DNA from: an uncultured Gammaproteobacteria bacterium
Lineage (GTDB): Bacteria; Pseudomonadota; Gammaproteobacteria; Pseudomonadales; JAHEGP01
DNA: 64,000 nt
Assembly: GCA_963722805.1 (NCBI GenBank)
Contig: CAVROQ010000033.1
Span: 198,619-262,618, forward strand
Reading direction: 5' to 3'
This document shows positions 1 through 16,457 of the stretch, piece after piece (within the stretch, counting starts at the first letter, position 1; each line of letters opens with the position of its first letter). The translations under genes and the position numbers were made by a program. A model generated the notes under the pieces. It searched no databases and had not been told where the DNA came from. It was given only the letters and a program-made list of their open reading frames with translations.

Positions 1-2205
1 CTCTTGTACCAGGCCGCTGTCGATCGCTGCCTGGCTGGTGGCAAAGCTGGCGCCGCCGGTAGTGCTCATATGGGCTTTACTGCTGGCGCCATCGTGGCAA
101 CTGCTGCACGCGGCGGCGATCGGTGTTACCACGGTATCGTCGCGTGGATCACTGAGGTCGGCGCCGGTATCCACCGTGGTGCCGAGCACAGAATCCGCCA
201 GCGGCAGCTGGAAGCCCTGCTCATTATGGCAGGCCAGGCAATTGCCCAGTTGTCCGGGGTAGTGCACTTCCTCTTCGTTGTAGACATAGGTGGTGAAGCC
301 ACTAAAGCCGACAATTTGCAGCGCCTGATCACGCATTGAAGCGGCATGAATACCGTGCACCATGGTCTTGAAATCGAGTGACTCCTCGTCCTTGCCATCG
401 GTCGGTGGCTGCGCGGCAACAGCGCGGACTTCACCATCGGTGTTGCGCGGGTTGTGACAACTGACACAACTGTCGATATTGTCGTTGCGATTGTTACCGT
501 GCAACACCAGGGTCTGGTGGCAGTGCAGGCAGTTATCAAGGATCACCGACTGGCGGCGGGGCACCGCCTGGCCGTCTACCTCGTCAATACTGTAGAAACC
601 GACGCTGTTGGTGAGCGGTATTTGCTGGAGCTCGCCGCTACCGTCAAGGTCGGCGGCGGGGTGGCCTTCAATCACCGCGACGCCCGAGCCGGTGGCCGGG
701 ATATTGGGTGCCAGGCTGCCGTCGGGAATAGCGGTTGACGAGGTCACCCGGTAGCTGCCGTCGCCATTGGCAACGGCGTTGGCGAGTGCGTCAATACTCA
801 CAGTACTGGCGTCTTCCTCGCCGTTGCCACTGTTGGTGTAATCGCTGGTCGACCAGCCGAGGGTGACCGCCAGCCGACTGGCACCATCATCCTGGGTCCA
901 TGGGCTGTCATTAAAAATATCGTAATCAGTGTCGTCTACGGGATTGAATACCCTGAAGCTGACCACCGGAAATTCTCCGGCTGCGGTATTCTCGATTGAC
1001 AATACCTCGGCGCCGAATTGTGCCCGGGCCTGGTCCACGGCAAGCGCATGGCTGGAAGCGATGGTGTCAGCGACGCCGCCGATGCCGTGGCAACTCATAC
1101 AATTCGAATCGTCACTCTGGCCGCCATAGTGCTGGTTGAAGTCGAGGTCGTCGTGGCAGCTGCCGCAGGCCGCGCGGCCGGCATGCTGGCTCCAGTTGTC
1201 GCCCTGGCTGGTGAGTTGAAGCGTGTCCTCGCCCGGGTCGGTACCGGTGCCGACGTGGCAATTGACACAGTTGCGAATATCCTGGGGATACTTGACCCCG
1301 GAGTAGTCGTGTTTGGTGTCGCTGAAGCCCCAGATGGCATATTCACCGCCGTCCTGTACGCTGGGCAATTGCGCGCCCATATGGATCTTGTGAATCATCA
1401 CCTTCATGTCGACGCTGTTGCCGCTATTGGCATCAGTGGAGCCGGGGTTGTGACAGGTCACGCAGTACTTGACCTCGGTGCGACCGCCGCCATGCAGTGC
1501 AAGTTGGTCGTGGCAGCGATTACAGTTGCTGGTGGCGGCGACATCGTAGTGAAAAATCGGGTCGGTTATGCCCGTTGCAGGTACCCAGTCATAGTAAGGA
1601 TTGGCGGGCTGCCGGGCATTGCTGAATTGCATCGCCACGCGATGACTGCGCTGGGGTTCATACGCCAAATTGAGCCCCTCAGTGTCGGCCTGGGCAGCAA
1701 TATCGGGAGCTACGACTTTGACGCTGGAAGCAAAGCGATAACGGTAGGTGCCATCGCCATTGTTGGTAAACTCCCCACGGCTGCCACTCTCAGTGGTAGC
1801 CTGCAGGGCGGCCTGGCTGCCGGGACCGACACCGGGTTGTTCGATCCGGTTGATATAGGATTGCCAATTGCCGGTCAGGTTACCGATGGGGCTGGATTCC
1901 AGCTTGCTGACAATCAGGCGAATATCGTTGGCTTGAAGATCGGTAATAGCGGTACTGTTTTGATCGGTCAGCTGGAACTCCACCACTGCCTGGCCATCAG
2001 CGGGAATCGTGGCGGCGGTGATAAACGGGAATATTTGCTCGGCATCGGCATAGGCTACGGCGGGCCGGGAGGGGTCGATGATCGCTCCACCCCCGCTCGG
2101 CGGTTGTGCGGGAGGTGGCGAGTCGTCGGAGCCGCCGCCACCGCCACAGCCCACCAGCAGGGCGATAGCGGCGCCAAAAAACAAAGAGTGCAGTCGCGCT
2201 TTCAT
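1..2205 (-). CDS. Outer-membrane decaheme c-type cytochrome lipoprotein, MtrC/OmcA family, second tandem paralog (3-prime end runs off the window)
   Basis: Absent from the ORF track because it has no in-window stop. Hand translation of the minus strand from ATG 2205 gives MKARLHSLFFGAAIALLVGC (lipobox). Nine CXXCH motifs follow (CNRCH, CVTCH, CVNCH, CGSCH, CMSCH, CLHCH, CVSCH, CLACH, CSSCH). The product is colinear with and clearly similar to the 2218..4638 product. GGAG lies upstream of the ATG. Confidence 0.8.
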   Translation of the reverse strand, partial: MKARLHSLFFGAAIALLVGCGGGGGSDDSPPPAQPPSGGGAIIDPSRPAVAYADAEQIFPFITAATIPADGQAVVEFQLTDQNSTAITDLQANDIRLIVSKLESSPIGNLTGNWQSYINRIEQPGVGPGSQAALQATTESGSRGEFTNNGDGTYRYRFASSVKVVAPDIAAQADTEGLNLAYEPQRSHRVAMQFSNARQPANPYYDWVPATGITDPIFHYDVAATSNCNRCHDQLALHGGGRTEVKYCVTCHNPGSTDANSGNSVDMKVMIHKIHMGAQLPSVQDGGEYAIWGFSDTKHDYSGVKYPQDIRNCVNCHVGTGTDPGEDTLQLTSQGDNWSQHAGRAACGSCHDDLDFNQHYGGQSDDSNCMSCHGIGGVADTIASSHALAVDQARAQFGAEVLSIENTAAGEFPVVSFRVFNPVDDTDYDIFNDSPWTQDDGASRLAVTLGWSTSDYTNSGNGEEDASTVSIDALANAVANGDGSYRVTSSTAIPDGSLAPNIPATGSGVAVIEGHPAADLDGSGELQQIPLTNSVGFYSIDEVDGQAVPRRQSVILDNCLHCHQTLVLHGNNRNDNIDSCVSCHNPRNTDGEVRAVAAQPPTDGKDEESLDFKTMVHGIHAASMRDQALQIVGFSGFTTYVYNEEEVHYPGQLGNCLACHNEQGFQLPLADSVLGTTVDTGADLSDPRDDTVVTPIAAACSSCHDGASSKAHMSTTGGASFATSQAAIDSGLVQE

Positions 2206-2217
2206 GCCCTGGCTCCG

Positions 2218-4638
2218 TTAACGGTTGTGCACTGTTTCGACACTGGCGCTGGCACTGCCGCGGTGGCAGACATCGCAGGTCTCAATCGCCCCCGTCGCCG
2301 TGGCATAGGGCGCTGCAAATAAACCACCCTGGCTTTGCATATGTTGCTTGCTGGCAGCGCTGTCATGGCAACTGCTGCAAACCGCAGTGACAGGCGTCGT
2401 TAACAGATCATCCCCAGGGTCGATGATGTCGGTGCCGGTGCCAACACTGGTGGCCAGCACCTCCGGCTCCAGTGGTAGTTGATAGCCGCGGCTGCCGTGG
2501 CAGGTCTGGCAGTTACTGAGGCGGCCGGGGTACTGCACATGTTGCAGGTCGTAGACGTGGGTGCTGAAACCACCGAAGCCGACGATTTGCAGCGGTGCCT
2601 CGCGGAAGGCCGCGGCATGGATGCCGTGGATCATGGTTTTGAAGTCCAGCGATTCTTCGGCTTTGCCATCCGTGGGTGGCTGGCTGGCAACTTCTCGCAC
2701 GCTGCGGTCGGTATTGCGTGGGTTGTGGCAGGTCACGCAGCCCTCGAGCTTGTCGGTGCGGTTGCCGTCATGCAATGACAGGCTCTGGTGGCAATCGAGG
2801 CAGTTATCCAGCACTGCCGACTCGCGCCGGGGGACCGGTCTGGGGTCTGTGATACCGAAATACTCAACAACATTGGTAAGCGGTACCTGGCTCGGCTCGT
2901 CTGCTGTGTCGAGATTCACCACCGGATGGCCCTCGATAGTCACAGCTCCCGAGCCGCTGGCAGCTATATCAGGTGCCAGGCTGCCATCGGGAATCGCCAC
3001 CGGCGAAGTCACGCTAAAGCTGCCGTCGCCGTTGCTGCTAGCGCTGGCCAGGGCATTGATCGAGACTGAACTGGCGCCGCTACTGTCTTCGGGTTTACTC
3101 CCGGCGTTGCCGGTGTTGGTGTAGTCCGAGGTCGACCAGGCCACAGTGACGGCAAGCCGGCTGGCACCCCCGCTGGCACCCCCGCCCTGGGTCCACTCAG
3201 GGTCGCTGAGAATGTTGTAGCTACTGTTGTTATTGTTGGGGTTGACGATACTGAACCTCACCGCGGGGTTTTGTCCCGGCGCTGTGTTACTGATTTCGAG
3301 TATTCTTGCTTCAAAGTTGGTGCTGGCTTCGGCAACCAGATTGCGGTGCGCCTGCTGCGGCCCTTTTGCCCTGCCGCCTTCAATATGGCAATTCATGCAG
3401 GGCTGTTCACCCCCTCCGCCATGCCGCAGTTTGTCGTCGTGGCAGGACTCGCAGGCAACTCGCCCGCCATAGGTGACCCAGTTGTGGCCATCTGTTGTCA
3501 GCACCGCGGTGGGTGCCGGCAGGTCATTGATTTCGGCGTAATCGACGTCTTCTTGCCCGGCGTGGCAGCGGGCGCAGTTGTTAATGACCCCGGGGTAGAT
3601 AATATCCGAGTAGTCGTGCTCACTATTGCTAAATCCCCAGATTTTATAGGGCGTACCATCTTCCACGCTGGGCAGGCTTGCGCCGCGGTGAATGCGGTGC
3701 GCCATGATTTTGAAATCGACCGAGTTTTCGCTATTGGCGTCTGTGCTGTCGGGGTTGTGGCAGCTTACGCAGTAATCCATTTCGGTGCGGCCCCCGCCAT
3801 GCAGGGCCAGATTTTCGTGACAGGTATTGCAGGTCGCGGTGGCGACCACCTGGCGACCTGGATAATTCTGGTAGAAGCCCTGGTCCAGCGAGGTTGCGCG
3901 CTCGCCGATGGCGGAATTGACCAGGTCCTCGGGCACAAAATCAATGCAGGCGTTGTTGGTTCTAGCCTCAAGTGAAAACTGGAAGCAGATACGATGGGTC
4001 TCTCCCAGGGTCGACGGGTCGCCGGGATTGGTAACCATGGTATAGGACCAACTGCCATCCTGGTTCAGCACCAACTCGCCACCGCTTTCGGTGGTGGCGT
4101 AGTTGCGGGCGACTTTGCCGGTGGCCACCGGGTCCTGTACTTTACGTGCGGAGTCGGGGATCGCATCTGGATCGGTGGTGCTGGTAAAGCTGGTGCATTG
4201 GTTGGCGCTGGCGCTGACATCGGAGGCGCTTCTGCACACCGGGTCCTCACTGCGGTTGATCAGGGATTCCCAGTCGCTGGTGTCAAACTCGGTACCGTCG
4301 ACAAGTTTGACAAAACTGGCGCGCAACGCACTGTTGTCCAACCCGGTTACCCGTTGCAGCTTATTCGCCACCAGGGTGAAGCTGACGGTCGGCGGACTAT
4401 CGAAGCGGATAGCAACAATATTCGCCTGCACGGTATCACTACTGGTTAATTGTGCGGCATCGATGCTGTCTGAGGGTAGCACCGGCGGCGGTGGCGTTAC
4501 CGGTCCGTCGGGCGGTGTAGGTCCGGGTTCGACGCCGGGCGCGCGGTCGCCGCCGCCCCCGCCACCGCAAGCGAATAGGGCAAGGCTGATCAGGCAGCTT
4601 GCCAGTCCAGTCCGAATTGTGGTCGTCATGGTTGTCAC
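2218..4638 (-). CDS. mtrC: Outer-membrane decaheme c-type cytochrome lipoprotein, MtrC/OmcA family
   Basis: 806-aa ORF. Lipobox LALFAC is followed by a Gly/Pro-rich linker. Exactly 10 CXXCH motifs (CNTCH, CVSCH, CARCH, CESCH, CMNCH, CLDCH, CVTCH, CQTCH, CSSCH, CDVCH). Lies directly downstream of the mtrA/mtrB-like genes. Confidence 0.85.
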   Translation of the reverse strand: MTTMTTTIRTGLASCLISLALFACGGGGGGDRAPGVEPGPTPPDGPVTPPPPVLPSDSIDAAQLTSSDTVQANIVAIRFDSPPTVSFTLVANKLQRVTGLDNSALRASFVKLVDGTEFDTSDWESLINRSEDPVCRSASDVSASANQCTSFTSTTDPDAIPDSARKVQDPVATGKVARNYATTESGGELVLNQDGSWSYTMVTNPGDPSTLGETHRICFQFSLEARTNNACIDFVPEDLVNSAIGERATSLDQGFYQNYPGRQVVATATCNTCHENLALHGGGRTEMDYCVSCHNPDSTDANSENSVDFKIMAHRIHRGASLPSVEDGTPYKIWGFSNSEHDYSDIIYPGVINNCARCHAGQEDVDYAEINDLPAPTAVLTTDGHNWVTYGGRVACESCHDDKLRHGGGGEQPCMNCHIEGGRAKGPQQAHRNLVAEASTNFEARILEISNTAPGQNPAVRFSIVNPNNNNSSYNILSDPEWTQGGGASGGASRLAVTVAWSTSDYTNTGNAGSKPEDSSGASSVSINALASASSNGDGSFSVTSPVAIPDGSLAPDIAASGSGAVTIEGHPVVNLDTADEPSQVPLTNVVEYFGITDPRPVPRRESAVLDNCLDCHQSLSLHDGNRTDKLEGCVTCHNPRNTDRSVREVASQPPTDGKAEESLDFKTMIHGIHAAAFREAPLQIVGFGGFSTHVYDLQHVQYPGRLSNCQTCHGSRGYQLPLEPEVLATSVGTGTDIIDPGDDLLTTPVTAVCSSCHDSAASKQHMQSQGGLFAAPYATATGAIETCDVCHRGSASASVETVHNR

Positions 4639-4683
4639 CTGTCTAGTACTCCCACCGCTAGTGCGTGTAGTAGCGGCTGTATA

Positions 4684-6999
4684 TCAGGGAAGTCGATAAA
4701 TGACCGACAACCCCAGGTAGTTGGTGGCCTCATCGGGGCTTTGTTCACCAAAGCTCAGCACTTTGTTGATGGTGTCTGGCGCAACATCGTCGATCGCCCA
4801 GTTGTCGCTTTGATAATAGAAATACTGGTAGTCAAGGTTCAGTGTCAGCTTGTCGCGCAGGTGGTATTGACCGCCAAGGCGCAATTGATGCTGGCGGGTT
4901 TTCCGGTCGGGAGTGGCGGTGGCAACGATGTAGGCCGCGCCATAGCTCACGTAATCGTTGTCGCCGACGGTTTCGATAAAGCTGTAATCGATTTCCAGAT
5001 CCAAACGGGGCATGGCGCGCCACTGCATGGCTATGCCAAGCGCCTGGACGGTGTCGTCGCTGTTGACATCCCAATCGCGGCTGGGGTCGCTGGCCTGGGG
5101 CAGGGGTGGAGTGACCGCGAAGGGGTTTTTCTCGACGCCACCCCGAAAAGCACGGCCCGATTGGGAGGCCGAGTAGCGGTTGTAATTCAGGTAGGCACTG
5201 ACATTGAGATCTTCATGGGCCTGGTAATTGGCGCTGAAGACATAGCTCTGAATGCGCTCGTCGGTCAGCCCCAGGGTGCTCTTGTCAAAGTCATCCTCGC
5301 GCCATAGCAGGTTTAGCCCCAGGCTCCAGCGGCTGGAGAGCAGGTAATTGAGGTCGACCTTGGCGCGCAGGCGCTCACGATTGGACAGCTGGTATTGACT
5401 CAGCAGTGGATGGTTGGAAAAGCGCTGGTTGTCGGGGGTTTCATTGATCAACTCGGTGTCGTAACGCGAATAGTAGGATTGTGACCATTGGTAGGTGTCG
5501 GCCGCGAGGTCGGCGTAGAGTAAATCGAGCCTCGCGCTTAGCGGCTGCCAGGTATTAATGGTCAGTTGCCCGCCAAGGCTGCTTTCATCGGTGTGCTCCA
5601 CTGCGGCATTACTGCGCTCAACCCGGTCGTAGGTATACTCAAGCAGAAGCTTGGTACGCTTGGGCAGGCGATAGCCGGCCTCAAAGGCGATGGTCTGCTT
5701 GCGGGTGTCGTGGGGCGCATTGTAGGCAGTATATTTTTCTGCGGGTTGGTCAGCACCGTCACCCCGCACATAAAGGTAGCCGTCCCGGGGGCTGTCGTTA
5801 GCGCGATCGGCGTAGCGATAGCGAGCCTCCAGCGTGAGGTTACGGGTGGCACGGGCATGTGCGCTGAGCATCAGGGTGGTGGTGGCGAGCTCGGCATCGA
5901 GGTCGCTGCGTGGCAGCCCCTGGGTGACAAATAATGCCGGGTTTATGGTGTAGTCGGGAAAGTCATCGTGTTGTTCAGTGATAGCGTAACTGCCGTCGAG
6001 CATCACCCTCAGGGTGGGTGACACGATCCAGTTTCCGGTCAGCCGCAGTCGTTGGTAGCGATTGTCCGGGGCGAGGGCAAGGGCGCCGATGCCGTTGGGA
6101 TAATCCACTGCCTGGCCGTAGCCGGCGATGTAGGGATTCTGCCAGCTGAGAAGATCTTCGTTGTTGGTAAAGTCGCTGAAGTGGTAACTGGCTGCCAAAT
6201 TCAGCGAGCGCCCTGTGTAATTAAAAGCGAGGTCAAAATCGGTTGTGCGCTGGTCCACCGGTTGTGGCAGTAGTGCAGCCAGTGGGCCGGCAGCATCATT
6301 GTAAATCGCGCCGCCAAGGTCGGTGGTGCCATTTTTCTGCTCGCTGCTGAATGTGGTTTGCAGGGCCCAGCCAGCCCCCAGAACGGTGTCAAATTGGAGG
6401 CCATATTCTTTGCGCTCCAACTTGCGTTCGAAGTTGTCCAGCGCAGGGTACAAAAGGCCCCAGTCGGAGGTGTTGGGGCCACCCTGCCAGCCCGGCGGTA
6501 GCACCAGAGTGGAATTCCCGGCACCGATAAAAGGTGTCTGGGCGGTGTTGTTTTTTACCTGTACCTGGTCGTTAAAAAACAATGCCAGGCGGCGCTCACC
6601 GGCCATACCCCATTCGAGCTTGCCCCTGCGGGTTTCAAGGCCGAGGTCACGGCCGTCAATCTGCCAATACTGGTTACTGCTGTCGCGCCATTTAAGCCAA
6701 TTGATATTGCCAATAAATACGGCACCGCGTTCATACAGGCCGTTGTACTGGCCGAACATAAAGTTGTCATCGCTAACATAACCGACGCCAGCCTCTACCT
6801 GGCCGCTGTAGTCAATTTCCCAGCGGCTGGCCAATGGCCTGGTTTCGGCTGCCAGGGCACTGTAGGGGTCGGACTGGGGAGGTGGATCAGAGCTTGCGTC
6901 GTCGGCGACGGCGCCCCCGGCCATAGCAGTTGCCAGCAGTGTCGGCAGCAGTTGCAAGCCGAGTAGGTAAAGCGCGCCGGAATGCTGTGTCTGTGCCAT
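4684..6999 (-). CDS. mtrB: MtrB/PioB-type outer membrane beta-barrel porin of a porin-cytochrome complex
   Basis: ORF 4684..7071 trimmed to ATG 6999, which has GGGAGGA upstream; the longer start overlaps the mtrA-like gene. Signal peptide ends ...LLATAMAGGAVA. About 770 aa, rich in Y/G/D/N with alternating strand-like pattern. Sits 14 bp after the periplasmic decaheme gene. Confidence 0.8.
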   Translation of the reverse strand: MAQTQHSGALYLLGLQLLPTLLATAMAGGAVADDASSDPPPQSDPYSALAAETRPLASRWEIDYSGQVEAGVGYVSDDNFMFGQYNGLYERGAVFIGNINWLKWRDSSNQYWQIDGRDLGLETRRGKLEWGMAGERRLALFFNDQVQVKNNTAQTPFIGAGNSTLVLPPGWQGGPNTSDWGLLYPALDNFERKLERKEYGLQFDTVLGAGWALQTTFSSEQKNGTTDLGGAIYNDAAGPLAALLPQPVDQRTTDFDLAFNYTGRSLNLAASYHFSDFTNNEDLLSWQNPYIAGYGQAVDYPNGIGALALAPDNRYQRLRLTGNWIVSPTLRVMLDGSYAITEQHDDFPDYTINPALFVTQGLPRSDLDAELATTTLMLSAHARATRNLTLEARYRYADRANDSPRDGYLYVRGDGADQPAEKYTAYNAPHDTRKQTIAFEAGYRLPKRTKLLLEYTYDRVERSNAAVEHTDESSLGGQLTINTWQPLSARLDLLYADLAADTYQWSQSYYSRYDTELINETPDNQRFSNHPLLSQYQLSNRERLRAKVDLNYLLSSRWSLGLNLLWREDDFDKSTLGLTDERIQSYVFSANYQAHEDLNVSAYLNYNRYSASQSGRAFRGGVEKNPFAVTPPLPQASDPSRDWDVNSDDTVQALGIAMQWRAMPRLDLEIDYSFIETVGDNDYVSYGAAYIVATATPDRKTRQHQLRLGGQYHLRDKLTLNLDYQYFYYQSDNWAIDDVAPDTINKVLSFGEQSPDEATNYLGLSVIYRLP

Positions 7000-7013
7000 T
7001 GCGCGTCCTCCCG

Positions 7014-7973
7014 CTACCTGGCCAGCACCGCCCCGGAGGGGTGGTTGGAACCATGGACCTGGCTGTGACAATTCAGGCAGTTCTTGCCCAGCATGTTCTG
7101 GTTGGCGTCACCGTTAGGCAGGCCACTGCCGCTATACAGGGTGCTGGGATGAAAAGCCGCCGAATGACACTGCTGGCAGAGGAACGGTCCCCGTGAGGTG
7201 AGTAGGTTATCGTTGACCGAGCCGTGGGGCTGGTGGCACAGGCTGCAGTCCTCGGCCGCCGGTGCATGTTCGAACAGGTAGGGTCCGCGCAGTTCGGCGT
7301 GGCAGCTGTAACAGTTGTCATTCAATGTAGGCTGGAGCAGGGCAAAGGGAGTTGCTGAGCCATGGCTGTTATGGCAATCGCTGCATACGGTGCGACCTTC
7401 CTTTATCGGGTGACGCGATGGCAGGTTGGCCTCGGTGCGTTGGCGCGGATGGCATTGGTAGCAAACGCCGGCCTGGGTCATATCATCCAGCAGCGGGTCC
7501 TGTTGTAAGTGCACCTGGTGACACTGGCTGCAACTGATGTCTTCGTCGTGGTGCACGCTGCCGGCCCAGAGCATTTGCTTACCACCCTGGTGGCATGCAA
7601 GGCAGGTGTTATCGCGCTGCCGCGCAGAGGAAGTCCAGCGTGGTCCAAAGCTTATCTGGGGTGCTTGCACCACGGGTGAGCGGCTGTGAGCAACACTGTT
7701 ACCGTGGCAACTGACACAGTTGCTATTGCCGCCCGTGTCCATCCTGCCGTGGACAGTATGTAAAATGGATTGCACCGGCACATCGGCGCTGGGCGCGTGG
7801 CAGCCCATGCAATCGGCAGCCTCTTCTGTCGCGGCAGTCTCGGTCGCAGCCAATGCCCCCGGTAGCACCAGCCAGGCGAACAAGCATACCAGCGTCAGGC
7901 GGCCAAGGCAGCGGCGGATGCCGGGCGGGCTGGCGCTGCGTGTTGCAATTGCTGCTGTCATTGCTACCTTCAT
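7014..7973 (-). CDS. mtrA: Periplasmic decaheme c-type cytochrome, MtrA/DmsE/PioA family
   Basis: 319 aa with an N-terminal signal peptide and 10 CXXCH motifs (CMGCH, CVSCH, CLACH, CSQCH, CYQCH, CSDCH, CYSCH, CSLCH, CQQCH, CLNCH). Size and heme density are typical of MtrA. Immediately precedes the porin gene. Confidence 0.9.
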   Translation of the reverse strand: MKVAMTAAIATRSASPPGIRRCLGRLTLVCLFAWLVLPGALAATETAATEEAADCMGCHAPSADVPVQSILHTVHGRMDTGGNSNCVSCHGNSVAHSRSPVVQAPQISFGPRWTSSARQRDNTCLACHQGGKQMLWAGSVHHDEDISCSQCHQVHLQQDPLLDDMTQAGVCYQCHPRQRTEANLPSRHPIKEGRTVCSDCHNSHGSATPFALLQPTLNDNCYSCHAELRGPYLFEHAPAAEDCSLCHQPHGSVNDNLLTSRGPFLCQQCHSAAFHPSTLYSGSGLPNGDANQNMLGKNCLNCHSQVHGSNHPSGAVLAR

Positions 7974-8021
7974 TACGGCTTTCGTTGCGCTTTGCGGCGG
8001 CTATTGGCGCGACAAGTGGAT

Positions 8022-9581
8022 TCAGGGTGCACTAAGGAAATCACTATCTTTGCTGGTAAGGCTGAACGTCATTGGCAGTGATACCCAGTGAGCGCCAGCA
8101 GCCTGGCCGGCCCCCTGCAGGGCGACACCAAAGGAATACTGTCCCTTGCGGGTGAAGCTCTTCTGGTTCGCTGTGCCCTGCAATGGCCGACTGAAATTCA
8201 CCGTCCAGCGACCGTCCTTGAAGTTGGCATTAGCGCTCAAGTTACTGTTTGCGACCCAGTCGATTCCTGCCAGAATGCTGGCGCTGCGGGCACTGGCGCC
8301 TTTGCTGAGGCCGAGCTTCCAGAGCTCAACATAGTTGCCCTCGGCCATCAGTTGGTCGAGCTCAGCAGGCGCGAGGGTTTGCACCGGCCTGCCAATTTGA
8401 TACGCCTGGTTACGAGATACCGCGAGGTATTTGTCGAGACCCTGGCCGCGGTCGCGCTTCATCCCGGGCATATCGCTATGGCAGGCAGCCCAACAGGCCC
8501 CGCGGCCAAATTCCTGGTTGCCGCCATCGCCCCACATAATGGCAATTTGTTGATCATCCGCCCCACCAAGCCAGCTGAGGCTGACCAGTAGTGCATCCTT
8601 TTGGCGCTTGAAGGCAATGCTGATATCACGCGCTGCTGTGGCGCCAGGCGCAGCCAGTTTCGCTCCCATGGTTTTCTCGTCACCCTGGTGGCAGGTTTCG
8701 CAGTCGAGACCCTGGCGCAGCGGCTGTGAACCGGGGTGCTCGCTTGTCAGCCATTCCCGATCTATTTGCCCCGGGCTAAAAAGGGTAATGGTTTTTCTGC
8801 TAACGGCAGTGGCTGGCAGCACTGGGGCCACGCTGTTGGCTGGGGCGTGAGCAATGCCGCTGTGGCAGTCGATGCAGGTTCGACCCGGCTGGGTCATAGT
8901 CTTGTGATAACTGGTAGCCTTGGCGCTAACCCTGGGGTCCTTTGCCATCGCGACCAAATTGTGACAGGAGTTACAGCCGGCGGAGCGATTGTTTCGCATC
9001 TGGCGCTCGGCGTCCGGATTGCCGTGGGGGTTGTGACAGCTGCTACAGGGAGGATTGTCGGCGATTTTTTCCGGCAGCGAGTGAATGCCGCTTTTCTGGG
9101 TTTTGTGGCACAGCAGGCAGATTTGGGCCTGGGTGTTGTTTTGCAGGGCTTTGTCGGCCTCGGCGTGGGCATCGTGACAGGTAGCGCAGCCTATGTTTTG
9201 TGTGGCGTGGACAGAGTCGTGCCATGCTTTGCCGACGTTAGCACTGTGGCATTCCAGGCACTGGGTATTCTGCTGTTCAATACCGCTGTTCCAGCGCGGT
9301 CCAAAACTTACCCCGGGGGAATTGATGGTAGGTGCGTTGGCATGGGCGGCGCTGGGGCCATGGCAGGACTCGCAGCCGCGTTCGGCCATCGGGCTACCCT
9401 GCTGCTGGGGGTCGCCGTGGGGTGTCGCCAGCAGCGGGTGTACCGGTGACTGGTCGCTATAGTCATGACAACCCAGGCATTGTTTTGCGCCATCAGTGGA
9501 GTAAGCATCGTTTGCGGCAGCGAGATAACCTGCGCCAAGACAGCAAACTATAAATGCAAGGTAGCGGAGTAGTTTTGCCAT
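8022..9581 (-). CDS. Secreted 9-heme c-type cytochrome with a C-terminal EB_dh/DOMON-like domain
   Basis: ORF 8022..9776 trimmed to ATG 9581 (MAKLLRYLAFIVCCLGAGYLAAA signal peptide); the longer form overlaps the cymA-like gene. Nine CXXCH motifs plus one CWAACH (CX3CH). The N-terminal half aligns by eye with the MtrA-like protein (SFGPRW block). The C-terminal ~200 aa (WGDGG...ACWAACH...LWKLG...DGRWTVNFSRPL...YSFGVAL) resembles the ethylbenzene-dehydrogenase-type heme domain. Confidence 0.75.
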   Translation of the reverse strand: MAKLLRYLAFIVCCLGAGYLAAANDAYSTDGAKQCLGCHDYSDQSPVHPLLATPHGDPQQQGSPMAERGCESCHGPSAAHANAPTINSPGVSFGPRWNSGIEQQNTQCLECHSANVGKAWHDSVHATQNIGCATCHDAHAEADKALQNNTQAQICLLCHKTQKSGIHSLPEKIADNPPCSSCHNPHGNPDAERQMRNNRSAGCNSCHNLVAMAKDPRVSAKATSYHKTMTQPGRTCIDCHSGIAHAPANSVAPVLPATAVSRKTITLFSPGQIDREWLTSEHPGSQPLRQGLDCETCHQGDEKTMGAKLAAPGATAARDISIAFKRQKDALLVSLSWLGGADDQQIAIMWGDGGNQEFGRGACWAACHSDMPGMKRDRGQGLDKYLAVSRNQAYQIGRPVQTLAPAELDQLMAEGNYVELWKLGLSKGASARSASILAGIDWVANSNLSANANFKDGRWTVNFSRPLQGTANQKSFTRKGQYSFGVALQGAGQAAGAHWVSLPMTFSLTSKDSDFLSAP

Positions 9582-9615
9582 GATAGCGATTCCTTTTATC
9601 CCCTGGTCTGCGCGT

Positions 9616-10221
9616 CTAGCCTTCCAGTGGAGGGTAAGCCGCAGCCGTTTGGCCTTCCGGGGTATGGGCAATGCCCCGGTGGCAGTCGATACAGGTTTTA
9701 TTCTTGTGTTCCACTGCCTGGTGATATTTTTGAGCTTTTTCTGTCTGCAACTCGAGAATAGTCTGCGACACCTCATGGCAATTGCGACACTCTGCCGAGT
9801 CGTTCGCCTTTAGCCGTGCAATCTCCCGTGCCTTCATTACCGGCGCGTGGGCGGCGTACTTTTCCGGGGTGTCGATTATGCCGGTAAAGTGACCCCACAC
9901 CTCGCGTGCGGCCTCAACCTTACGAATCATCTTGGGTATAAACGGTTGCGGAACATGGCAGTCAGAGCAGGTTGGTCGCACGCCGGTCTTATTATGAAAA
10001 TGGCTGGTACTTTCCAGCATTGCGTAGGAGTTATCGTACATTTCATGGCAGCTGGTGCAGAATGCCTCGGTGCTGGTTGCCTTCAGGCTCACTTCAAAAC
10101 CGACCGCCGACACAATGCCGATAATGATGCCCGTGCCCAGCAGGGCGGCCACTGACCAGCGCGCCGAGGGACTCATCAGTCGGCTCAAGAAGCCCTTTTT
10201 TTGATCCCCGGGATTAGTCAT
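9616..10221 (-). CDS. cymA: Membrane-anchored tetraheme quinol dehydrogenase, NapC/NirT/CymA family
   Basis: 201 aa. One N-terminal TM helix (WSVAALLGTGIIIGIVSAVGF). Four CXXCH motifs (CTSCH, CSDCH, CRNCH, CIDCH). First gene of the cytochrome operon. Confidence 0.8.
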   Translation of the reverse strand: MTNPGDQKKGFLSRLMSPSARWSVAALLGTGIIIGIVSAVGFEVSLKATSTEAFCTSCHEMYDNSYAMLESTSHFHNKTGVRPTCSDCHVPQPFIPKMIRKVEAAREVWGHFTGIIDTPEKYAAHAPVMKAREIARLKANDSAECRNCHEVSQTILELQTEKAQKYHQAVEHKNKTCIDCHRGIAHTPEGQTAAAYPPLEG

Positions 10222-10382
10222 TGTCTACCCTATGGATTAGCTTTTTTACTTGCCGCGGGCTTGCCGTGTGGGCAGTCACTTTTTGGCGCCATACGACAGT
10301 CCCGCGAACGAGGTCGCAGGGCAATGTTTCACTACCGAGCTTTTTTACAATACTGAGCCTTCACCAGCGCCTATCCGACTTA

Positions 10383-10399
10383 TGATAGTTTTACTATCA
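10383..10399. promoter_or_regulatory. Perfect 7-3-7 palindrome TGATAGT-TTT-ACTATCA upstream of the cytochrome operon (candidate operator)
   Basis: Read directly from the sequence. Lies 162-178 bp upstream of the cymA-like start codon in the 300-bp intergenic region. The arms match the Fur half-site TGATAAT at 6 of 7 positions, but the spacer is 3 nt rather than 1. Confidence 0.35.
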
Positions 10400-10522
10400 A
10401 GATGCGGTTCGCCGTCATCAATCTCTGGCCAACACTATGACACGGCTTTGGCGTCGGTAACATACCCTCCGGCTAGTTTATTTGATTTACAACAGCTTAT
10501 GGTGAGCTTAAGTCAAATTGAT

Positions 10523-11554
10523 TCAGGGCTTCGCATCTTCAGCGAGGGCATCTTCGGCAACTGGGCCGGAGCCAATCGTTGCCGGGCGCGCCGGGATAGA
10601 GCGCAGGCCACTGCCAAATACCTGCAGCAATCCCTTGGTTGCTGCGCCAATGCGGCGGTATCGCAAACCAAGCGCATAGGCATGAAAGGCATCGCCAAGA
10701 AGTTGGCGTTGCAGATAGTAGCTGCCGGCCGCGATGCATTGCCTGCCTATTCTCAGGCGCAATGCCCGCAGTTCTCGAGGTGTCAGCTGTTCGTCGTCAA
10801 AGGTTCGCAGGGTATCCAGTTTGACCACAGCGAGGCGCTGGTAATCGTATGTCAGGTTATGGTGATGCCGCCTGACTTCGGTTAGGGGGTCGTTGATAAA
10901 TGCTACCGGGGCGCGTCGGAATGCTCGCAAACAGAAATCCATATCCTCAATGAATTGACACTCGTTGCTAACCGCCACTGGATATCTGAAGCGCAGATCG
11001 GCAATAGCGCTGTGCCTGAAGAGCATGGTTTGGGTGTGGCCCGGAATCTCGGCGCACCGCAACAGCGCAGGAAATGCTTCTTCGTTGATGCGGTAGCCGC
11101 CACCGCCCAGGGTTGACCTGAGTCGCAGGAACTCAAGCTCTGGCAAGAAATAAAATTGATCCGGATAATAACTTTGGGCGGCATCAAAGCGGTCGAAATT
11201 GCTGAACACGGTGCCAATGTCCGGCTCAGAATCCAACACCGCCAGTTGCCGCCGCAGCTTCTCTGGATGCCAGCGGTCGTCGGCGTCAAGGAAAGCGATG
11301 TACTCGCCCCGGGCCCGCTCCAATCCCTCGTTGCGTGCCGCAGCAACGCCCTGATTGCGGGTGGTGATGACTTCAATGCCCCTGCCTGCGGGTCCTGCTA
11401 ATACCTCATCAGTGCCATCGCTTGATCCATCATCCACCACAATAAATTGTATATTGGGCACGTCCTGCTGCCATACACTATGGATCGCCTCTTCAATGTA
11501 TGCCACGGCGTTGTAAGCCGGAATAATGACGGTAACGCGAGGGAAAGTTGTCAT
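10523..11554 (-). CDS. Family 2 glycosyltransferase
   Basis: 343 aa. N-terminal VTVIIPAYNAVAYIEEAIHSVWQQ...FIVVDDGSSDGT and a later LDADD motif are typical of GT2. Confidence 0.8.
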   Translation of the reverse strand: MTTFPRVTVIIPAYNAVAYIEEAIHSVWQQDVPNIQFIVVDDGSSDGTDEVLAGPAGRGIEVITTRNQGVAAARNEGLERARGEYIAFLDADDRWHPEKLRRQLAVLDSEPDIGTVFSNFDRFDAAQSYYPDQFYFLPELEFLRLRSTLGGGGYRINEEAFPALLRCAEIPGHTQTMLFRHSAIADLRFRYPVAVSNECQFIEDMDFCLRAFRRAPVAFINDPLTEVRRHHHNLTYDYQRLAVVKLDTLRTFDDEQLTPRELRALRLRIGRQCIAAGSYYLQRQLLGDAFHAYALGLRYRRIGAATKGLLQVFGSGLRSIPARPATIGSGPVAEDALAEDAKP

Positions 11555-11652
11555 TTCCAGGTTGCTTTGCTGTTAGTTTTAGTCACAGCTTCCAGAGTAA
11601 AGGACTAAGGCCCAATGGCCAAGCTTTTGAAAGACTAAATTGTTGACATAGG

Positions 11653-13644
11653 TCATTCGATAACGCGTATTTTCTCGGCAACCAATTCGGCTACATCGTA
11701 GACTTTTCGCGACTCACTGTGCCTGCTCGCGCTGGACGTTAACATCAGGTTGCAGAAAGAACATGAGGTGGCAATTTTGTCGGCTCCGGTGTCAAACGCT
11801 TCCTGTACCCTAACGTCGCTGATATGAGCGGTACCACCCTGGCCCCCCCAGTAGTTGCCGCCGCCGGCGCCGCAACAAAAGCTGTTTTCTTTGTTGCGTG
11901 GCATTTCTATCAGCTTGCCGACTGCGGCTACCAGCTTGCGCGGCGCATCCACAATGCCATTGTGCCGCGCCAGGTAGCAGGGGTCGTGAAAGGTAATCTT
12001 GTCGCCCTCATCAAAGGCTATGCTGAGGGCGCCCTCCTCTATCAGCTGATCGATAAATACCGAATGGGGAATGGTCTGCCAATCGGCGCCAAGCTCCGGG
12101 TAATAGCGATCAAAACTGTTGTAGCAATGGGCGCATACGGTCAACACTTTTTGTATCTGCTGCTCGCGAAACTGCTCGATGTTGGCTTCGGCAGTTTCGA
12201 CGAACTGCATTTCGTTGCCCATCATCTTGGCCGGGTCGCCGGTGCAGCGGGCCTCCTCCAGAATGCCATAGGAAACCCCTGCTGCATTGAGTATTTTGAC
12301 CATGGCGCGGGCAATTTCCTGGGTTCGCTCTTCGTAGATTACCGAGCAGCCAATCCACAGCAGGTACTCAGTATTGCCGGCTTGAAAAAACGGTACATCA
12401 AGGCCCTTGCGCCAGTCATCGGGATTGGCGCTGGTACCCACAAAGGGGTGGCCGCGGTTTTCCAGGTTGCGGTTGGCGGCCGCCATGGTGTCTGGCATTT
12501 GCGCCAGGTCCATCACATAGTGGCGACGAAACTCAACAATAATCTCGGCCGGATTGTTGCTTACCGGGCAGGCCTCGACACAGGCGGCGCAGGTGGTGCA
12601 GTTGAACATGGCCTCCATGCCAAGTACCTGTAGCAGCGAGTCGTCGTCAAACCTTTCCTGCTCCAGGTATTCGGCGCAGTTTGCCATGACTGTTTTGGGC
12701 GAGAGGTCCTTCCCGGTCTGCGCTGCCGGGCACACCTCGTAGCAGCGACCACACCATAGGCAGGCCGACGCATCCAGCAGGTTTTTCTGGGTCAGCTCGG
12801 CGAGCTTGCTGGCGCCAAACACGGGTTCTTGGTCCGACTCATCATCGTCGTCAAACTCGAAGCTTATCGGAGGCAGGTTGATGCCGTCGCGACGATGGGC
12901 AAAGGCTGCGTTGGCTGGCCCCAACAGCATGTGGGAAAAAGCGCTGTGGGCAATCAGGGCAATAAATCCGCAACCCATCAGGCCGTGTATCCACCACATA
13001 ATCTGGAAGCCGAGAATCGAGCCTTGCTCAGTGAAGGCCCCCTGCAGGCCGGCAGCTAGGGTATTGCCAATAAACTCGGCATTGTCGCCCGAGGGTTCAA
13101 ATGCCAGCCGGAAGCCCTCGGTGATATAGCCGGCAATGACAATGAGTAGCAGCGCGATCTCGCCATGTTCAAAGCCATGCCGGGTTTTACCACCGGCGGT
13201 GAGCCGCTCTGGTGGTGACAGGCGACGCAACAGAAAGAACGCGACCCCGGTAAACAGCATAATGCCGCCCAGCTCGCGGCCGAGCTTGACAAACAGGTAA
13301 GCAAACCAGCCTTCGTAAACGTCAATGCCGACAAAGCTGAAAGCGAATACCGCGTGACCAAATATCAGTAGCAAAGCACCAATAAACATAATGCCGTGGA
13401 AGCTGCCTGCAACCGGCCGCTGCAACAGCCGCTCGGTCATCAGTCCGCGCAGGACAAAAGTTTTCAGGTTGAAGTGCCTGGCCAGGGAAGCTCTGGTGAC
13501 GCTGCCGTCCGGGTTAAACCAGGGTTTGCCACGGGAAATTCGTTGCCAGTAACGTTGCAGTCCCAGCCAGAGGCTGGCAAACGCGCCGACCAGCAGCAGG
13601 CCAAGCAACACGTAGCTCAGCGTTGATATGCTATCCATGGACAA
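11653..13644 (-). CDS. Membrane-bound FeS oxidoreductase (NarI-like TM domain + 2x[4Fe-4S] + CCG domains), candidate ETF:quinone oxidoreductase
   Basis: 663 aa. About 5-6 N-terminal TM helices. Ferredoxin motifs CLWCGRCYEVCP and CTTCAACVEACP. HdrD/GlpC-type cysteine-rich motifs (HDPCYL..., FCCGAGGG). Downstream of etfA in the same orientation. Confidence 0.75.
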   Translation of the reverse strand: MSMDSISTLSYVLLGLLLVGAFASLWLGLQRYWQRISRGKPWFNPDGSVTRASLARHFNLKTFVLRGLMTERLLQRPVAGSFHGIMFIGALLLIFGHAVFAFSFVGIDVYEGWFAYLFVKLGRELGGIMLFTGVAFFLLRRLSPPERLTAGGKTRHGFEHGEIALLLIVIAGYITEGFRLAFEPSGDNAEFIGNTLAAGLQGAFTEQGSILGFQIMWWIHGLMGCGFIALIAHSAFSHMLLGPANAAFAHRRDGINLPPISFEFDDDDESDQEPVFGASKLAELTQKNLLDASACLWCGRCYEVCPAAQTGKDLSPKTVMANCAEYLEQERFDDDSLLQVLGMEAMFNCTTCAACVEACPVSNNPAEIIVEFRRHYVMDLAQMPDTMAAANRNLENRGHPFVGTSANPDDWRKGLDVPFFQAGNTEYLLWIGCSVIYEERTQEIARAMVKILNAAGVSYGILEEARCTGDPAKMMGNEMQFVETAEANIEQFREQQIQKVLTVCAHCYNSFDRYYPELGADWQTIPHSVFIDQLIEEGALSIAFDEGDKITFHDPCYLARHNGIVDAPRKLVAAVGKLIEMPRNKENSFCCGAGGGNYWGGQGGTAHISDVRVQEAFDTGADKIATSCSFCNLMLTSSASRHSESRKVYDVAELVAEKIRVIE

Positions 13645-13740
13645 CCCCGATCTGTGGCCGATAGTCGACCATTGTTACTGGTCTCGCTGCTGGTGTGCAC
13701 CGGCTTCTGACGTCGCTCATCGATGGCGACGGCAGAGCCT

Positions 13741-14934
13741 TTACCGCTTCAATATGGCAGCAGTCGCGTTGCCACCCAGCCCGAGGGTCTGGGCCAATCC
13801 TACCCTGGCGTTGGGTACCTGGCGTCCGCCTGCCTCGCCGCGTAATTGCCAGGTAAGTTCGGCAATCTGGAAGACACCCATGGCGGTGGTGGCTTCGCCG
13901 AAGGAAACGAACCCGCCGGATGGATTGATGGGCATGCGGCCAGTGGGTGCGGTTGCGCCAGACTCCAGCAATGATTCCGACTCTCCGGCACTGCACAGGC
14001 CCCATTCTTCGGGAAATGCCAGCTCGTAGTAACAGGTGTTGTCCTGGAGCTCGGTCAGGCTGATGTCCCCCGGCCCTATGCCAGCCTGCTCAAATGCTCG
14101 GGTAACGGCGAGTTGGGCTTCGGTGTGCAGGTTGGGGCATTGGGTGATCGGGTCGGCGAGGCTGCGCGGCAGCATATCGTCAAAGGTCATGGTGGCGACA
14201 GTGCTGCTTGCCACGGTAATCGGCTTGCCGGTGAACTGGCGCGCTTTTTCCTTTGAGCATACTACCGCCGCAGCTGCACCGTTAGAAACCGGGCATATCT
14301 GGAACAAGCGCAGGGGGTTGCTGACATAGGGTGACTGCATTACCTGCTCGAGGGATATTTCCTTTTGAAAACGAGCGTAGGGATTGTGGACCGAATTTTT
14401 GCGTGCTTTTACTGCTACCTGGGAAAATTGCTCTTCCGTAGTGCCGTGCTCGTACATGCGTCGACGGGCCAGGGTTGACCAGAACGAAGGACCCGGCATG
14501 CCGACACAGCGCTGTCGCAAAAACTCTGGATCGGTGGTTTCTTCAAGGCCTGAAGTCTGGATCATACCTTTGGGCATGACCTCTCCACCAACCACCAACA
14601 CCATATCGTAAACGCCGCCGGCGACCAGAGCATAGCCAATATTGAAGGCATTGCCACCGGCGGCGCAGCCGGCTGAGAGGTTGTACACCGGAATGCCGGT
14701 GGAGCCCATGTCTTCGACCACATCATTGCCATTGAGACCCCAGCCCTTGCCGCCGGAAAATCGTGAGCTGGCCGCAGAAACAGCCTGGATATGCTTCCAG
14801 CTGACGCCGGCATCTGCGAGGGCGGCGTCTACCGCGTGGCGACACAGGGCCTTGACAGACTTGTGGCCAACGATATTGTCGCCGGTCTTGCCAAAGCGGT
14901 GCATGCCCACGCCCAATACCGCAACTTCACGCAT
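13741..14934 (-). CDS. Thiolase-like protein, SCP-x/nonspecific lipid-transfer type
   Basis: 397 aa. N-terminal REVAVLGVGMHRFGK and C-terminal GGNATAAILKR are typical of DUF35-associated thiolases. Starts 4 bp after the DUF35 gene. Confidence 0.8.
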   Translation of the reverse strand: MREVAVLGVGMHRFGKTGDNIVGHKSVKALCRHAVDAALADAGVSWKHIQAVSAASSRFSGGKGWGLNGNDVVEDMGSTGIPVYNLSAGCAAGGNAFNIGYALVAGGVYDMVLVVGGEVMPKGMIQTSGLEETTDPEFLRQRCVGMPGPSFWSTLARRRMYEHGTTEEQFSQVAVKARKNSVHNPYARFQKEISLEQVMQSPYVSNPLRLFQICPVSNGAAAAVVCSKEKARQFTGKPITVASSTVATMTFDDMLPRSLADPITQCPNLHTEAQLAVTRAFEQAGIGPGDISLTELQDNTCYYELAFPEEWGLCSAGESESLLESGATAPTGRMPINPSGGFVSFGEATTAMGVFQIAELTWQLRGEAGGRQVPNARVGLAQTLGLGGNATAAILKR

Positions 14935-14937
14935 CCG

Positions 14938-15381
14938 TTAGCTCCCGTCGCTTGCCATTTGTTTAAACTTCCAGGTGGTGAACGCACTGTCACCCTCGTG
15001 ATACAGGGTGTCGATAAGCAGTTCTACCGTGGCGCCCACGCTTACGCAGTCGGGTTTGTCGACCATCTGCCCGATCAGCCGCAGGCCGCATTCGAGGTCA
15101 ACGACGCCCATTGCATAAGGCGTAAAAGGCTCATCGTACTTGTGTGGAGGTGGAGGCGGAAAGTCGGCTACCGCATAGCTCCAGAGCACGCCACGACCGC
15201 CAAAATCGCAGTCTTGCATATTCGGTTTGACGCAGTCCGGGTTATGACAGAAATCAGCGCGCGGAAAATAGGGCGTGTTGCAACCGGCGCACCTGGAACC
15301 ATGCAGCCTGGCGCCGTCGCTCTCTGAAAACAGCCCGTCGATGCAGGGTTGGCGCCCCTGTGGTGCAGTGGATTCCGACAT
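14938..15381 (-). CDS. DUF35 OB-fold/zinc-ribbon protein (BbsA/ChsH2-C-like thiolase partner)
   Basis: 147 aa. Zn-ribbon CAGCNTPYFPRADFCHNPDC followed by an OB-fold-like segment. Paired with the thiolase gene. Confidence 0.75.
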   Translation of the reverse strand: MSESTAPQGRQPCIDGLFSESDGARLHGSRCAGCNTPYFPRADFCHNPDCVKPNMQDCDFGGRGVLWSYAVADFPPPPPHKYDEPFTPYAMGVVDLECGLRLIGQMVDKPDCVSVGATVELLIDTLYHEGDSAFTTWKFKQMASDGS

Positions 15382-15395
15382 GAAAATGGCTCCTT

Positions 15396-16370
15396 TTACG
15401 CTGTCGCTTGTTTCACCAACTCGGGCAATATTTCGACGCAGTCACCGACAATCCCATAGCGGGCATAGCGATAGATGGCGGCGTCGGGATCCTTGTTGAT
15501 GGCAACGATAGTTTCGGCGGCGGAACACCCTGCCATGTGCTGGCTGGCACCAGAAATACCTGCGGCAATGTAGAGGCCGGGGCGGGTAATTTTGCCGGTC
15601 AGGCCTACCTGGCGTGACGAATCGATCCAGCCGTCGTCGACAATTGCTCTGGATGCGCCGTGCATGCCACCCAGGGCCATCGCCAGTTGCTCTACCAGCC
15701 GGTAATTCTCCGCCGCGCCAAGGCCGCGCCCGCCAGCGACAATAATGTCGGCGTCTTCCAGTCTTGGGCCATCGGCGCTGGCCGCAGAAGTCACCGTGAA
15801 ACGTTCTTCGGTCTGCTCCAGATCTACCACGACCGAACGCGCCTGCGGCGCAGGAGTTGCGGCAGCCATCGCTGCGCCAGCCATCGCTGCGCCAGCCGGC
15901 GCTGCGGAGACCAGCGAAATAACATTGACCGCTGCGCCGAGGCGGTAAACAGCGTGAGTGTCGCCACCGTATGCGCTGGCGGTAACCAGGAGGGCGTCGC
16001 CATCGCGCTTCAGGTCAAACACATTCATGCTAACGGGTATGTTAAGCCGTCCTGCCAGTCGCGGTGCGATCAGTCGGGTGCTTGGGCTCTGGTTGAACAG
16101 CACCGTGGCCGGCGAATACTGCTGGCAGTATTGTGCCAGTGCTGCCACCATTTTGTCGGAGCCAAAGTCGACAAGGTCCGGGTGTTCGATGGTGTCGAGG
16201 TTCGCAACGCCGCAGCGTGCCGCCATTTCCTGTGCTGCCGCGGACAAGGCACCAATCACCAACCAGCTCAGTTCGGCGCCGATCGACTGACTGTAAGCCA
16301 GTGCCAGGCTGAGTGACTCTTCGGTTCCGGCCTCGATAGTGTCACCCCAGGAGCAGAGTACAACGGTCAT
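15396..16370 (-). CDS. etfA: Electron transfer flavoprotein alpha subunit
   Basis: 324 aa. C-terminal FAD-binding signature VGLTGKITRPGLYIAAGISGASQHMAGC. No etfB gene is adjacent. Confidence 0.85.
   Translation of the reverse strand: MTVVLCSWGDTIEAGTEESLSLALAYSQSIGAELSWLVIGALSAAAQEMAARCGVANLDTIEHPDLVDFGSDKMVAALAQYCQQYSPATVLFNQSPSTRLIAPRLAGRLNIPVSMNVFDLKRDGDALLVTASAYGGDTHAVYRLGAAVNVISLVSAAPAGAAMAGAAMAAATPAPQARSVVVDLEQTEERFTVTSAASADGPRLEDADIIVAGGRGLGAAENYRLVEQLAMALGGMHGASRAIVDDGWIDSSRQVGLTGKITRPGLYIAAGISGASQHMAGCSAAETIVAINKDPDAAIYRYARYGIVGDCVEILPELVKQATA
15865..15906. repeat. In-frame 15-bp tandem duplication (about 2.8 copies) in the EtfA inter-domain linker
   Basis: GCCATCGCTGCGCCA repeated at 15865 and 15880, with a degenerate third copy. 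Encodes AGAAMAGAAMAAA. Confidence 0.7.
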
Positions 16371-16457
16371 AGTGTGACTTCCTTCAATCTGTTGCAGGCG
16401 GTAGAACTGCAGAGAAGTTCAACAACCTGTCAGGGTGCGTACCTGTGTTTTCAAAAG

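Follow-up and report, generated by a model that had tools for sequence, protein, structure and literature searches.

Can one compact gene cluster encode every step between the quinone pool and the cell surface, and in which direction would electrons travel along it? The question is raised by a run of multihaem cytochrome genes at one end of a 64,000-nucleotide stretch of DNA from an uncultured gammaproteobacterium (GenBank assembly GCA_963722805.1, contig CAVROQ010000033.1, positions 198,619 to 262,618; this whole stretch is referred to below as the window). The cluster has the order cymA-X-mtrA-mtrB-mtrC-mtrC2, in which X denotes a long cytochrome with an MtrA-like portion and a DOMON/EB_dh domain. 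It is very probably a Group 6 MtrCAB conduit that is encoded together with its inner-membrane and periplasmic partners. MtrCAB systems have been surveyed in 148 species (Baker, Conley, Gralnick and Girguis, 2022, mBio 13:e02904-21, PMC8805035; hereafter Baker et al., 2022). Judged by its sequence, the locus is a further example of the Group 6 (Halieaceae-type) conduit already described in silico, and not a new system. Two observations may add to the published description, namely a conserved C-x3-CH site in X and a separate clade for the additional mtrC. The components of the cluster, with the non-coding stretch that precedes it, are as follows (lengths in amino acids, aa, or base pairs, bp).

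9616-10221, minus strand: cymA-like gene, 201 aa, four CXXCH motifs, hydrophobic N-terminal anchor.
8022-9581, minus strand: X ("mtrA-DOMON"), 519 aa with the start MAKLL, nine CXXCH motifs plus CWAACH, signal peptide.
7014-7973, minus strand: mtrA, 319 aa, ten CXXCH motifs, signal peptide.
4684-6999, minus strand: mtrB, 771 aa with the start MAQTQ, signal peptide, zero cysteines.
2218-4638, minus strand: mtrC, 806 aa, ten CXXCH motifs, lipobox LFAC.
1-2205, minus strand: mtrC2, 735 aa inside the window, nine CXXCH motifs, lipobox LVGC, open at the window edge.
10222-10522: non-coding stretch of 301 bp ahead of cymA, likely to hold the promoter of the presumed operon.

The physical arrangement is compact. 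An earlier, sequence-only reading of this DNA had described six co-directional minus-strand genes with gaps of 12-48 bp, and the measured gaps, taken in order from cymA, are 34, 48, 14, 45 and 12 bp, the 14 bp separating the end of mtrA from the start of mtrB. The haem-motif numbers given in that reading agree with a count of CXXCH in each of the six genes. A mechanically generated list of open reading frames (ORFs) extends X to position 9776, where it overlaps cymA. The six genes contain forty-two CXXCH motifs and the remaining 36 ORFs of this DNA, 13,720 aa in total, contain none; the motif density of the cluster is therefore not a product of chance. Every cytochrome carries an N-terminal anchor, a signal peptide or a lipobox for export. 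The content of guanine plus cytosine (GC) shows no shift between the cluster and its flanks, and scans of the whole window for tRNA genes and Rfam families gave no matches and hence no clue to an integration site or a riboswitch.

The last gene, mtrC2, had been said to be missing from the ORF track because it runs off the window, and it is indeed open at position 1. Its remainder is supplied by a second assembly of the same population, a 666-kb contig (ENA ERZ25039603 contig_25927, here L026) that extends past the window edge and matches window positions 1-19586 at 99.6% identity, with 52 mismatches and 21 indels. The full mtrC2 product on this contig is 757 aa, so that the window copy is 22 residues short, and the tenth haem motif, CTLCH, begins two residues past the window edge. 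The same contig appears to contain errors: its X ends early at 448 aa, mtrA is uncalled and an EtfA gene further upstream is cut to 144 aa. The indels look like frameshifts of a long-read assembly, which makes the window the cleaner version of the locus.

The porin is the component with the firmest identity. MtrB matches PF11854 at 413.3 bits (cut-off 23) over profile positions 1-635 of 635, and TIGR03509 at 385.2 bits (cut-off 240.05); at the level of sequence it also aligns over nearly its full length with the crystal chain 6r2q_B (E 3.4e-37). A model built with AlphaFold2 (AF2) from an alignment of 45 homologues has a mean predicted local distance difference test score (pLDDT) of 84 and a predicted template modelling score (pTM) of 0.79. 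It contains 26 long strands and superimposes on 6r2q_B in Foldseek with an E-value of 4.3e-46, a template modelling (TM) score of 0.93 and a root-mean-square deviation of 2.8 Å. The protein is thus predicted to form a 26-strand outer-membrane beta-barrel, and 26 is the strand number of the crystal MtrB barrel (Edwards et al., 2020, PMC7198977). The sequence-only reading had called this protein an MtrB-like porin that ought to match MtrB/PioB family models and to form a beta-barrel; both expectations were borne out, the second by predicted structure. Its closest relative is the MtrB of an "uncultured Gammaproteobacteria" metagenome-assembled genome (MAG), locus L001 (78% identity), and identity to Halieaceae MtrB proteins is 43-51%. 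The window MtrB has no cysteine at all. Shewanella MtrB, by contrast, needs an N-terminal CXXC for its function, a motif that is not known from MtoB and PioB.

The two cytochromes that would flank X in the chain are also recognizable. MtrA, described earlier as an MtrA-like decahaem, scores 262 bits against TIGR03508 (MtrA/DmsE; cut-off 192.2), upholding that call, and its residues 51-319 match 6r2q_A with an E-value of 1.3e-75; the hydrophobic N-terminus forms a signal peptide that ends in ALA-A. The assignment of the first gene to the NapC/CymA type is confirmed at the level of the Pfam family, where the protein matches the full profile of PF03264 (NapC/NirT) at 207.8 bits against a cut-off of 24.1. 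It also matches the NrfH structure 2j7a (E 8.5e-7), and its membrane anchor is a hydrophobic helix at residues ~22-42, within the stretch ALLGTGIIIGIVSAV.

Both distal genes encode OmcA/MtrC-family proteins, as expected of what had been read as two lipobox-bearing decahaems: mtrC scores 412.6 bits and mtrC2 476 bits against TIGR03507 (cut-off 209.3 for each), in addition to the lipoboxes listed above. The two products are 46% identical to each other. The mtrC protein has two PF22113 matches and finds MtrF (3pmq, E 4.8e-28) as well as OmcA and MtrC among known structures, whereas only mtrC2 matches the OmcA-like N-terminal domain PF22112, which it has in common with the Halieaceae MtrC proteins. 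In a neighbour-joining tree mtrC2 groups with the MtrC proteins of Halioglobus, Kineobactrum, Pseudohalioglobus and Mangrovimicrobium. The mtrC gene is the extra copy, situated between mtrB and the Group-6-type mtrC2. In the midpoint-rooted neighbour-joining tree, which has no outgroup, it forms a clade of its own with L001 and several metagenomic sequences, apart from the copies of Ketobacter and Colwelliaceae, which also lack the OmcA-like N-terminal domain and to which it is only 37-39% identical. Those copies are taken here to represent the "type I" of Baker et al., and it is with them that the comparison was made. On this basis the extra mtrC possibly represents a lineage distinct from the published "type I".

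Cytochrome X is the least conventional member of the cluster. Alignments with relatives of 519 aa cover 100% of its sequence. Against the MtrA/DmsE model TIGR03508 it reaches 120 bits, below the cut-off of 192.2, and its N-terminal ~210 residues align with haems 1-7 of MtrA (6r2q_A, E 2.5e-29). The C-terminus matches PF09459 (EB_dh) at 42.8 bits against a cut-off of 33.3. An AF2 model (pLDDT 74) folds the C-terminal 200 residues as an EbdC-like beta-sandwich; the loop at residues 359-401, which carries the C-x3-CH motif (CWAACH in X), has a pLDDT below 50. The top Foldseek match to the model is EbdC (2ivf_C, E 5.7e-9), followed by MtrA (6r2q_A, E 1.6e-6), and further matches include 7b04_C and 4qi3_A, with NxrC and the cytochrome domain of cellobiose dehydrogenase among the proteins found.

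EbdC holds its haem b non-covalently, by means of a methionine and a lysine. X shares the beta-sandwich of EbdC but departs from it at this site. The residue of X that a profile alignment places opposite Met108, a haem ligand of EbdC, is a leucine, and a non-covalent haem b with a methionine ligand of the EbdC type is not supported. Just before that position lies an insertion of ~40 residues that contains C-x3-CH-x5-M. Residues C363, A365, C367, H368 and M374 are invariant in 40 aligned homologues. More broadly, C-x3-CH is found within the EB_dh/DOMON domain in all of 120 X homologues, and a methionine follows six residues after the histidine in 118 of them. An invariant His498-Trp499 pair lies near the position of the EbdC lysine ligand. 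Because C-x3-CH is invariant, a tenth haem appears to be present: X is probably a decahaem in which the tenth haem is held covalently, via C-x3-CH, at the canonical haem site of the DOMON fold. The nonahaem label given to this protein by Baker et al. would then probably be an undercount. A tentative extension, to which we give somewhat less than an even chance, is that such a decahaem X, in whose DOMON/EB_dh fold the sixth ligand would be supplied by Met374 or His498, acts together with CymA as a dedicated mobile module between the inner membrane and the porin.

The distribution of the cluster was assessed through a scan for MtrB with one genome per species, which yielded 24 loci, on which the window proteins were then placed by tblastn. 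These loci are nearly all from Halieaceae (Haliea, Halioglobus, Seongchinamella, Pseudohalioglobus and Mangrovimicrobium), together with a few unclassified gammaproteobacterial MAGs, and the homologues of MtrB, X and MtrC2 are likewise overwhelmingly from this family. The order cymA-X-mtrA-mtrB-mtrC2 is kept in ~15 of the 24, and a cymA homologue adjoins X or mtrA in 17. Among these loci the extra mtrC of the window recurs only in L001, the proteins of which are 76-86% identical to those of the window. Metagenomic contigs with close homologues of the extra mtrC show that the parts can be rearranged. The contig designated L027 (L027:6812-22070) has the order mtrA-mtrB-mtrC-mtrC2-mtrC2'-ubiA-cymA-X-hemH, with three MtrC paralogues; here the cymA-X pair has moved as a unit to a place downstream of the mtrC genes, beside genes for a UbiA prenyltransferase and a ferrochelatase. 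Two others, L028 and L029, have mtrA-mtrB-mtrC-mtrC2-cymA without X, and in both of them MtrA is a protein of 634 aa with 22 CXXCH motifs, in which two extra six-haem repeats are fused before the decahaem core. The gene of L028 is located as follows.

L028:5843-7747 (ENA ERZ21270861 contig_10720): elongated MtrA, 634 aa, 22 CXXCH motifs.

An MtrA with 22 haems may offer another means of crossing the periplasm. A role for X as a periplasmic link is thus supported by two arrangements, the joint movement of cymA and X and the elongation of MtrA where X is absent.

Of the described systems, Group 6 is the closest to the locus in gene content. Group 6 consists mostly of Halieaceae, plus single members from the Oceanospirillales, the Alteromonadales and unclassified Gammaproteobacteria; the nonahaem "mtrA-DOMON" and a CymA homologue are encoded within its clusters, and mtrC is present twice in the members from outside the Halieaceae (Baker et al., 2022). 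The window shares with this group mtrA, mtrB, an mtrC with the OmcA-like N-terminal domain (type "VII"), mtrA-DOMON and the linked CymA homologue, and the place of its second mtrC, after mtrB and before the Group-6 mtrC, is the one seen in the non-Halieaceae members. Besides the MtrB identities and the separate clade of the extra mtrC noted above, two differences are apparent. X has the additional invariant C-x3-CH described above, and hemH, which is found directly downstream in most Halieaceae members of the group (Baker et al., 2022), is missing from that position: the L026 contig shows YaeQ, DUF5669 and MFS genes there, whereas hemH does follow the rearranged cluster of L027.

The Shewanella MtrCAB-OmcA system has the same three-part outer-membrane module (6R2Q; PMC7198977), and the proteins of the locus match its crystal chains, although MtrB is only 22% identical to Shewanella MtrB over the structural alignment. 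Both systems also have two surface decahaems, MtrC and OmcA in Shewanella and the products of mtrC and mtrC2 here. They differ in the periplasmic carrier, which in Shewanella is FccA or CctA and at this locus is X, and in organization: the Shewanella order is omcA-mtrC-mtrA-mtrB with cymA unlinked. The sequence-only reading had stressed the linkage of cymA and the different gene order. The difference from Shewanella is real; its novelty does not stand. Linkage of cymA was considered as a new feature and rejected as such, both the linkage and the gene order having been published, and almost every MtrCAB group has members with an in-cluster CymA homologue, Shewanella being the exception (Baker et al., 2022). 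The Group 2 clusters of Vibrio and Aeromonas, mtrCAB-pdsA-cymA, likewise encode a quinol dehydrogenase and a periplasmic carrier together as a portable pathway (Baker et al., 2022), but their carrier is the dihaem PdsA, in contrast to the 519-aa X with its MtrA-like portion and its DOMON/EB_dh domain.

From these identities a path for electrons can be proposed. The membrane-anchored NapC/NirT tetrahaem would exchange electrons with the quinone pool. The soluble X, with its chain of nine MtrA-like c-haems and a probable tenth, covalent haem in its DOMON/EB_dh domain, would bridge the periplasm from CymA to MtrA, a role that we infer for it. MtrA, threaded through the predicted 26-strand barrel of MtrB, would cross the outer membrane, and MtrC and MtrC2 would pass electrons to or from insoluble or other extracellular substrates. 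Flow along this path is moderately favoured to be outward, so that the cell would respire Fe(III), Mn(IV) or other external acceptors at times of low oxygen. Two arguments are behind this preference. The locus has two MtrC-type surface decahaems, which are absent from characterised oxidising systems, and an FNR/ANR-like box lies upstream of cymA in Halieaceae relatives. At least 9 of 14 Halieaceae relatives have this box, TTGATC-N4-nnCAA, at a distance of 73-85 bp ahead of cymA. Boxes were scored as 8-10 matches out of 10 to TTGAT-N4-ATCAA, and a 9/10 match would arise in 150 bp after shuffling with a probability of at most 0.01 per locus. The loci concerned are these.

L002, L003, L004, L006, L009, L012, L018, L021 and L022: FNR/ANR-type box, 73-127 bp upstream of cymA.
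L005, L019 and L020: weaker FNR/ANR-type box upstream of cymA, within the same overall range of 73-127 bp.

The conserved palindrome suggests that the clusters of Halieaceae are induced at low oxygen.

The opposite direction has to be considered seriously. The same conduit might run inward: electrons drawn from Fe(II), reduced minerals or cathodes would enter the quinone pool or travel further to oxygen or nitrate, in the manner suggested for MtoAB/CymA in Sideroxydans and PioAB in Rhodopseudomonas. The relatives are mostly Halieaceae, and one of the loci with a box, L009, comes from a MAG labelled "Biocath_Gamma_022". Laboratory experiments have moreover driven Mtr in reverse, and the sequence by itself gives no direction (Baker et al., 2022). 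The lack of cysteine in the window MtrB also speaks for this reading, the CXXC of Shewanella MtrB not being known from MtoB and PioB. Mto and Pio, the characterised oxidising systems, nevertheless do without the MtrC-type decahaems of which this locus has two; neither an mtoD-like nor a cyc2-like gene is present in the cluster; and the FNR/ANR-type box of many relatives fits induction at low oxygen, which is more typical of a pathway to an alternative acceptor. Inward flow is on this evidence considered unlikely, though it is the most substantial of the alternatives to outward respiration.

Several observations weigh against the reading of the locus as a complete, outward-running conduit or limit how far it extends. 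The same caution applies to the earlier description of a complete conduit in one operon, of which the gene set and the spacing stand, while completeness of the conduit and co-transcription are matters of inference. Co-transcription of the six genes is suggested by their spacing and by synteny; consensus scans of positions 1-11700 gave six promoter matches against 4.4 by shuffling and twelve terminator matches against 10.4, in both cases the level of chance and thus uninformative as to where the operon begins or ends. The cymA-like protein reaches 226.1 bits against the NapC/NirT subfamily model TIGR02161, below its cut-off of 310.6, and for this reason "CymA" is used as the name of a role given by genomic context rather than of demonstrated orthology. 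X is absent from 4 of the 24 loci (L015, L019, L020 and L024), which means that it is not indispensable, given that some Halieaceae clusters do without it. As to direction, Mtr conduits can run either way, and Baker et al. (2022) did not infer one. At the conserved position the FNR-like box is absent from both the window and L001; the sole FNR-like box of the window, an 8/10 match at -274 that is shared with L001, has a probability of ~0.12 by shuffling and is not claimed. Since neither of the two has the box at that place, the regulatory argument applies to the family and not to this locus. Finally, the literature yielded only the in-silico description of Group 6 and of mtrA-DOMON, with no experimental work on either.

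The surroundings of the cluster are rich in genes of other kinds. A gene for a family-2 glycosyltransferase (10523-11554, minus strand) lies 301 bp upstream of cymA; at this position it is kept only in L001 (69% identity) and not in the Halieaceae loci. The region 11653-16370, also on the minus strand and directly upstream of the cluster, encodes a 663-aa membrane protein with a 4Fe-4S domain and two CCG domains, a thiolase plus DUF35/ChsH2-OB pair, and an EtfA-like protein. By way of these proteins, electrons released in acyl-CoA oxidation could reach the quinone pool tapped by CymA. Farther away, the region 18312-60250 is unusually dense in genes for the catabolism of CoA esters. It contains eight family-III CoA-transferase genes (28621, 31152, 33789, 38544, 48480, 49686, 54283), the 812-aa protein at 28621 having two domains, as well as genes for acyl-CoA dehydrogenases, thiolase-like proteins, an enoyl-CoA hydratase, amidohydrolases and a luciferase-like monooxygenase. 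An OYE-type flavoreductase (43199-45196) and a flavoprotein resembling KstD and fumarate reductase (58544-60250) are also encoded there, and as a whole the region resembles islands for the degradation of steroids, bile acids or alkyl side chains.

These neighbours give some substance to another explanation, namely that the cluster is a general redox outlet which serves soluble oxidants (iodate, flavins, humics or peroxide) or disposes of electrons from CoA-ester catabolism under low oxygen. EtfA and the 663-aa Fe-S/CCG membrane oxidoreductase directly upstream, together with the many acyl-CoA dehydrogenases, thiolases and CoA-transferases encoded beyond them, would supply the quinone pool with electrons, and Shewanella MtrCAB has been implicated in H2O2 and iodate chemistry (PMC9732548). 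Yet the catabolic genes are not kept beside the cluster in the Halieaceae loci, the glycosyltransferase being the one neighbour that is shared, and then only with L001, and no pointer to any particular soluble substrate was found in the sequence. This explanation is regarded as improbable. A far smaller chance still attaches to the view that the cluster is a decaying, non-functional remnant of horizontal acquisition or an artefact of assembly. Horizontal transfer of mtr clusters is frequent (Baker et al., 2022), and L026, with its indels, shortened X and uncalled mtrA, could be taken as a sign of decay. In the window, however, all six frames are intact and all haem motifs and export signals are present; X is full-length in comparison with its relatives, an identical MtrA occurs in an independent Logan assembly (SRR21856587), and the GC content of the cluster does not differ from that of its flanks. 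With the window frames intact and the indels confined to L026, the reading as a pseudogene or artefact was rejected.

Taken as a Group 6 conduit with its own inner-membrane and periplasmic partners, the locus is one more intact and self-contained Mtr pathway from the quinone pool to the surface, in an uncultured gammaproteobacterium with abundant relatives in coastal sediments and waters. If the proposal for X is correct, X would be a long periplasmic wire that replaces FccA and CctA, the small diffusing carriers of Shewanella, and some relatives would reach the same end by means of an MtrA extended to 22 haems. Domains of the DOMON/EB_dh fold are otherwise known to bind haem b non-covalently, and only the DOMON domain of X, with its probable haem c, might yield new cytochrome biochemistry at this locus. 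Several cultured Halieaceae carry the same cluster, among them Haliea sp. E1-2-M8, Seongchinamella sediminis, S. unica and Pseudohalioglobus sediminis; they provide a handle on whether such bacteria, for the most part aerobic heterotrophs, use minerals for respiration or take up electrons, and the cluster bears on how electrons cross the periplasm without the carriers of Shewanella.

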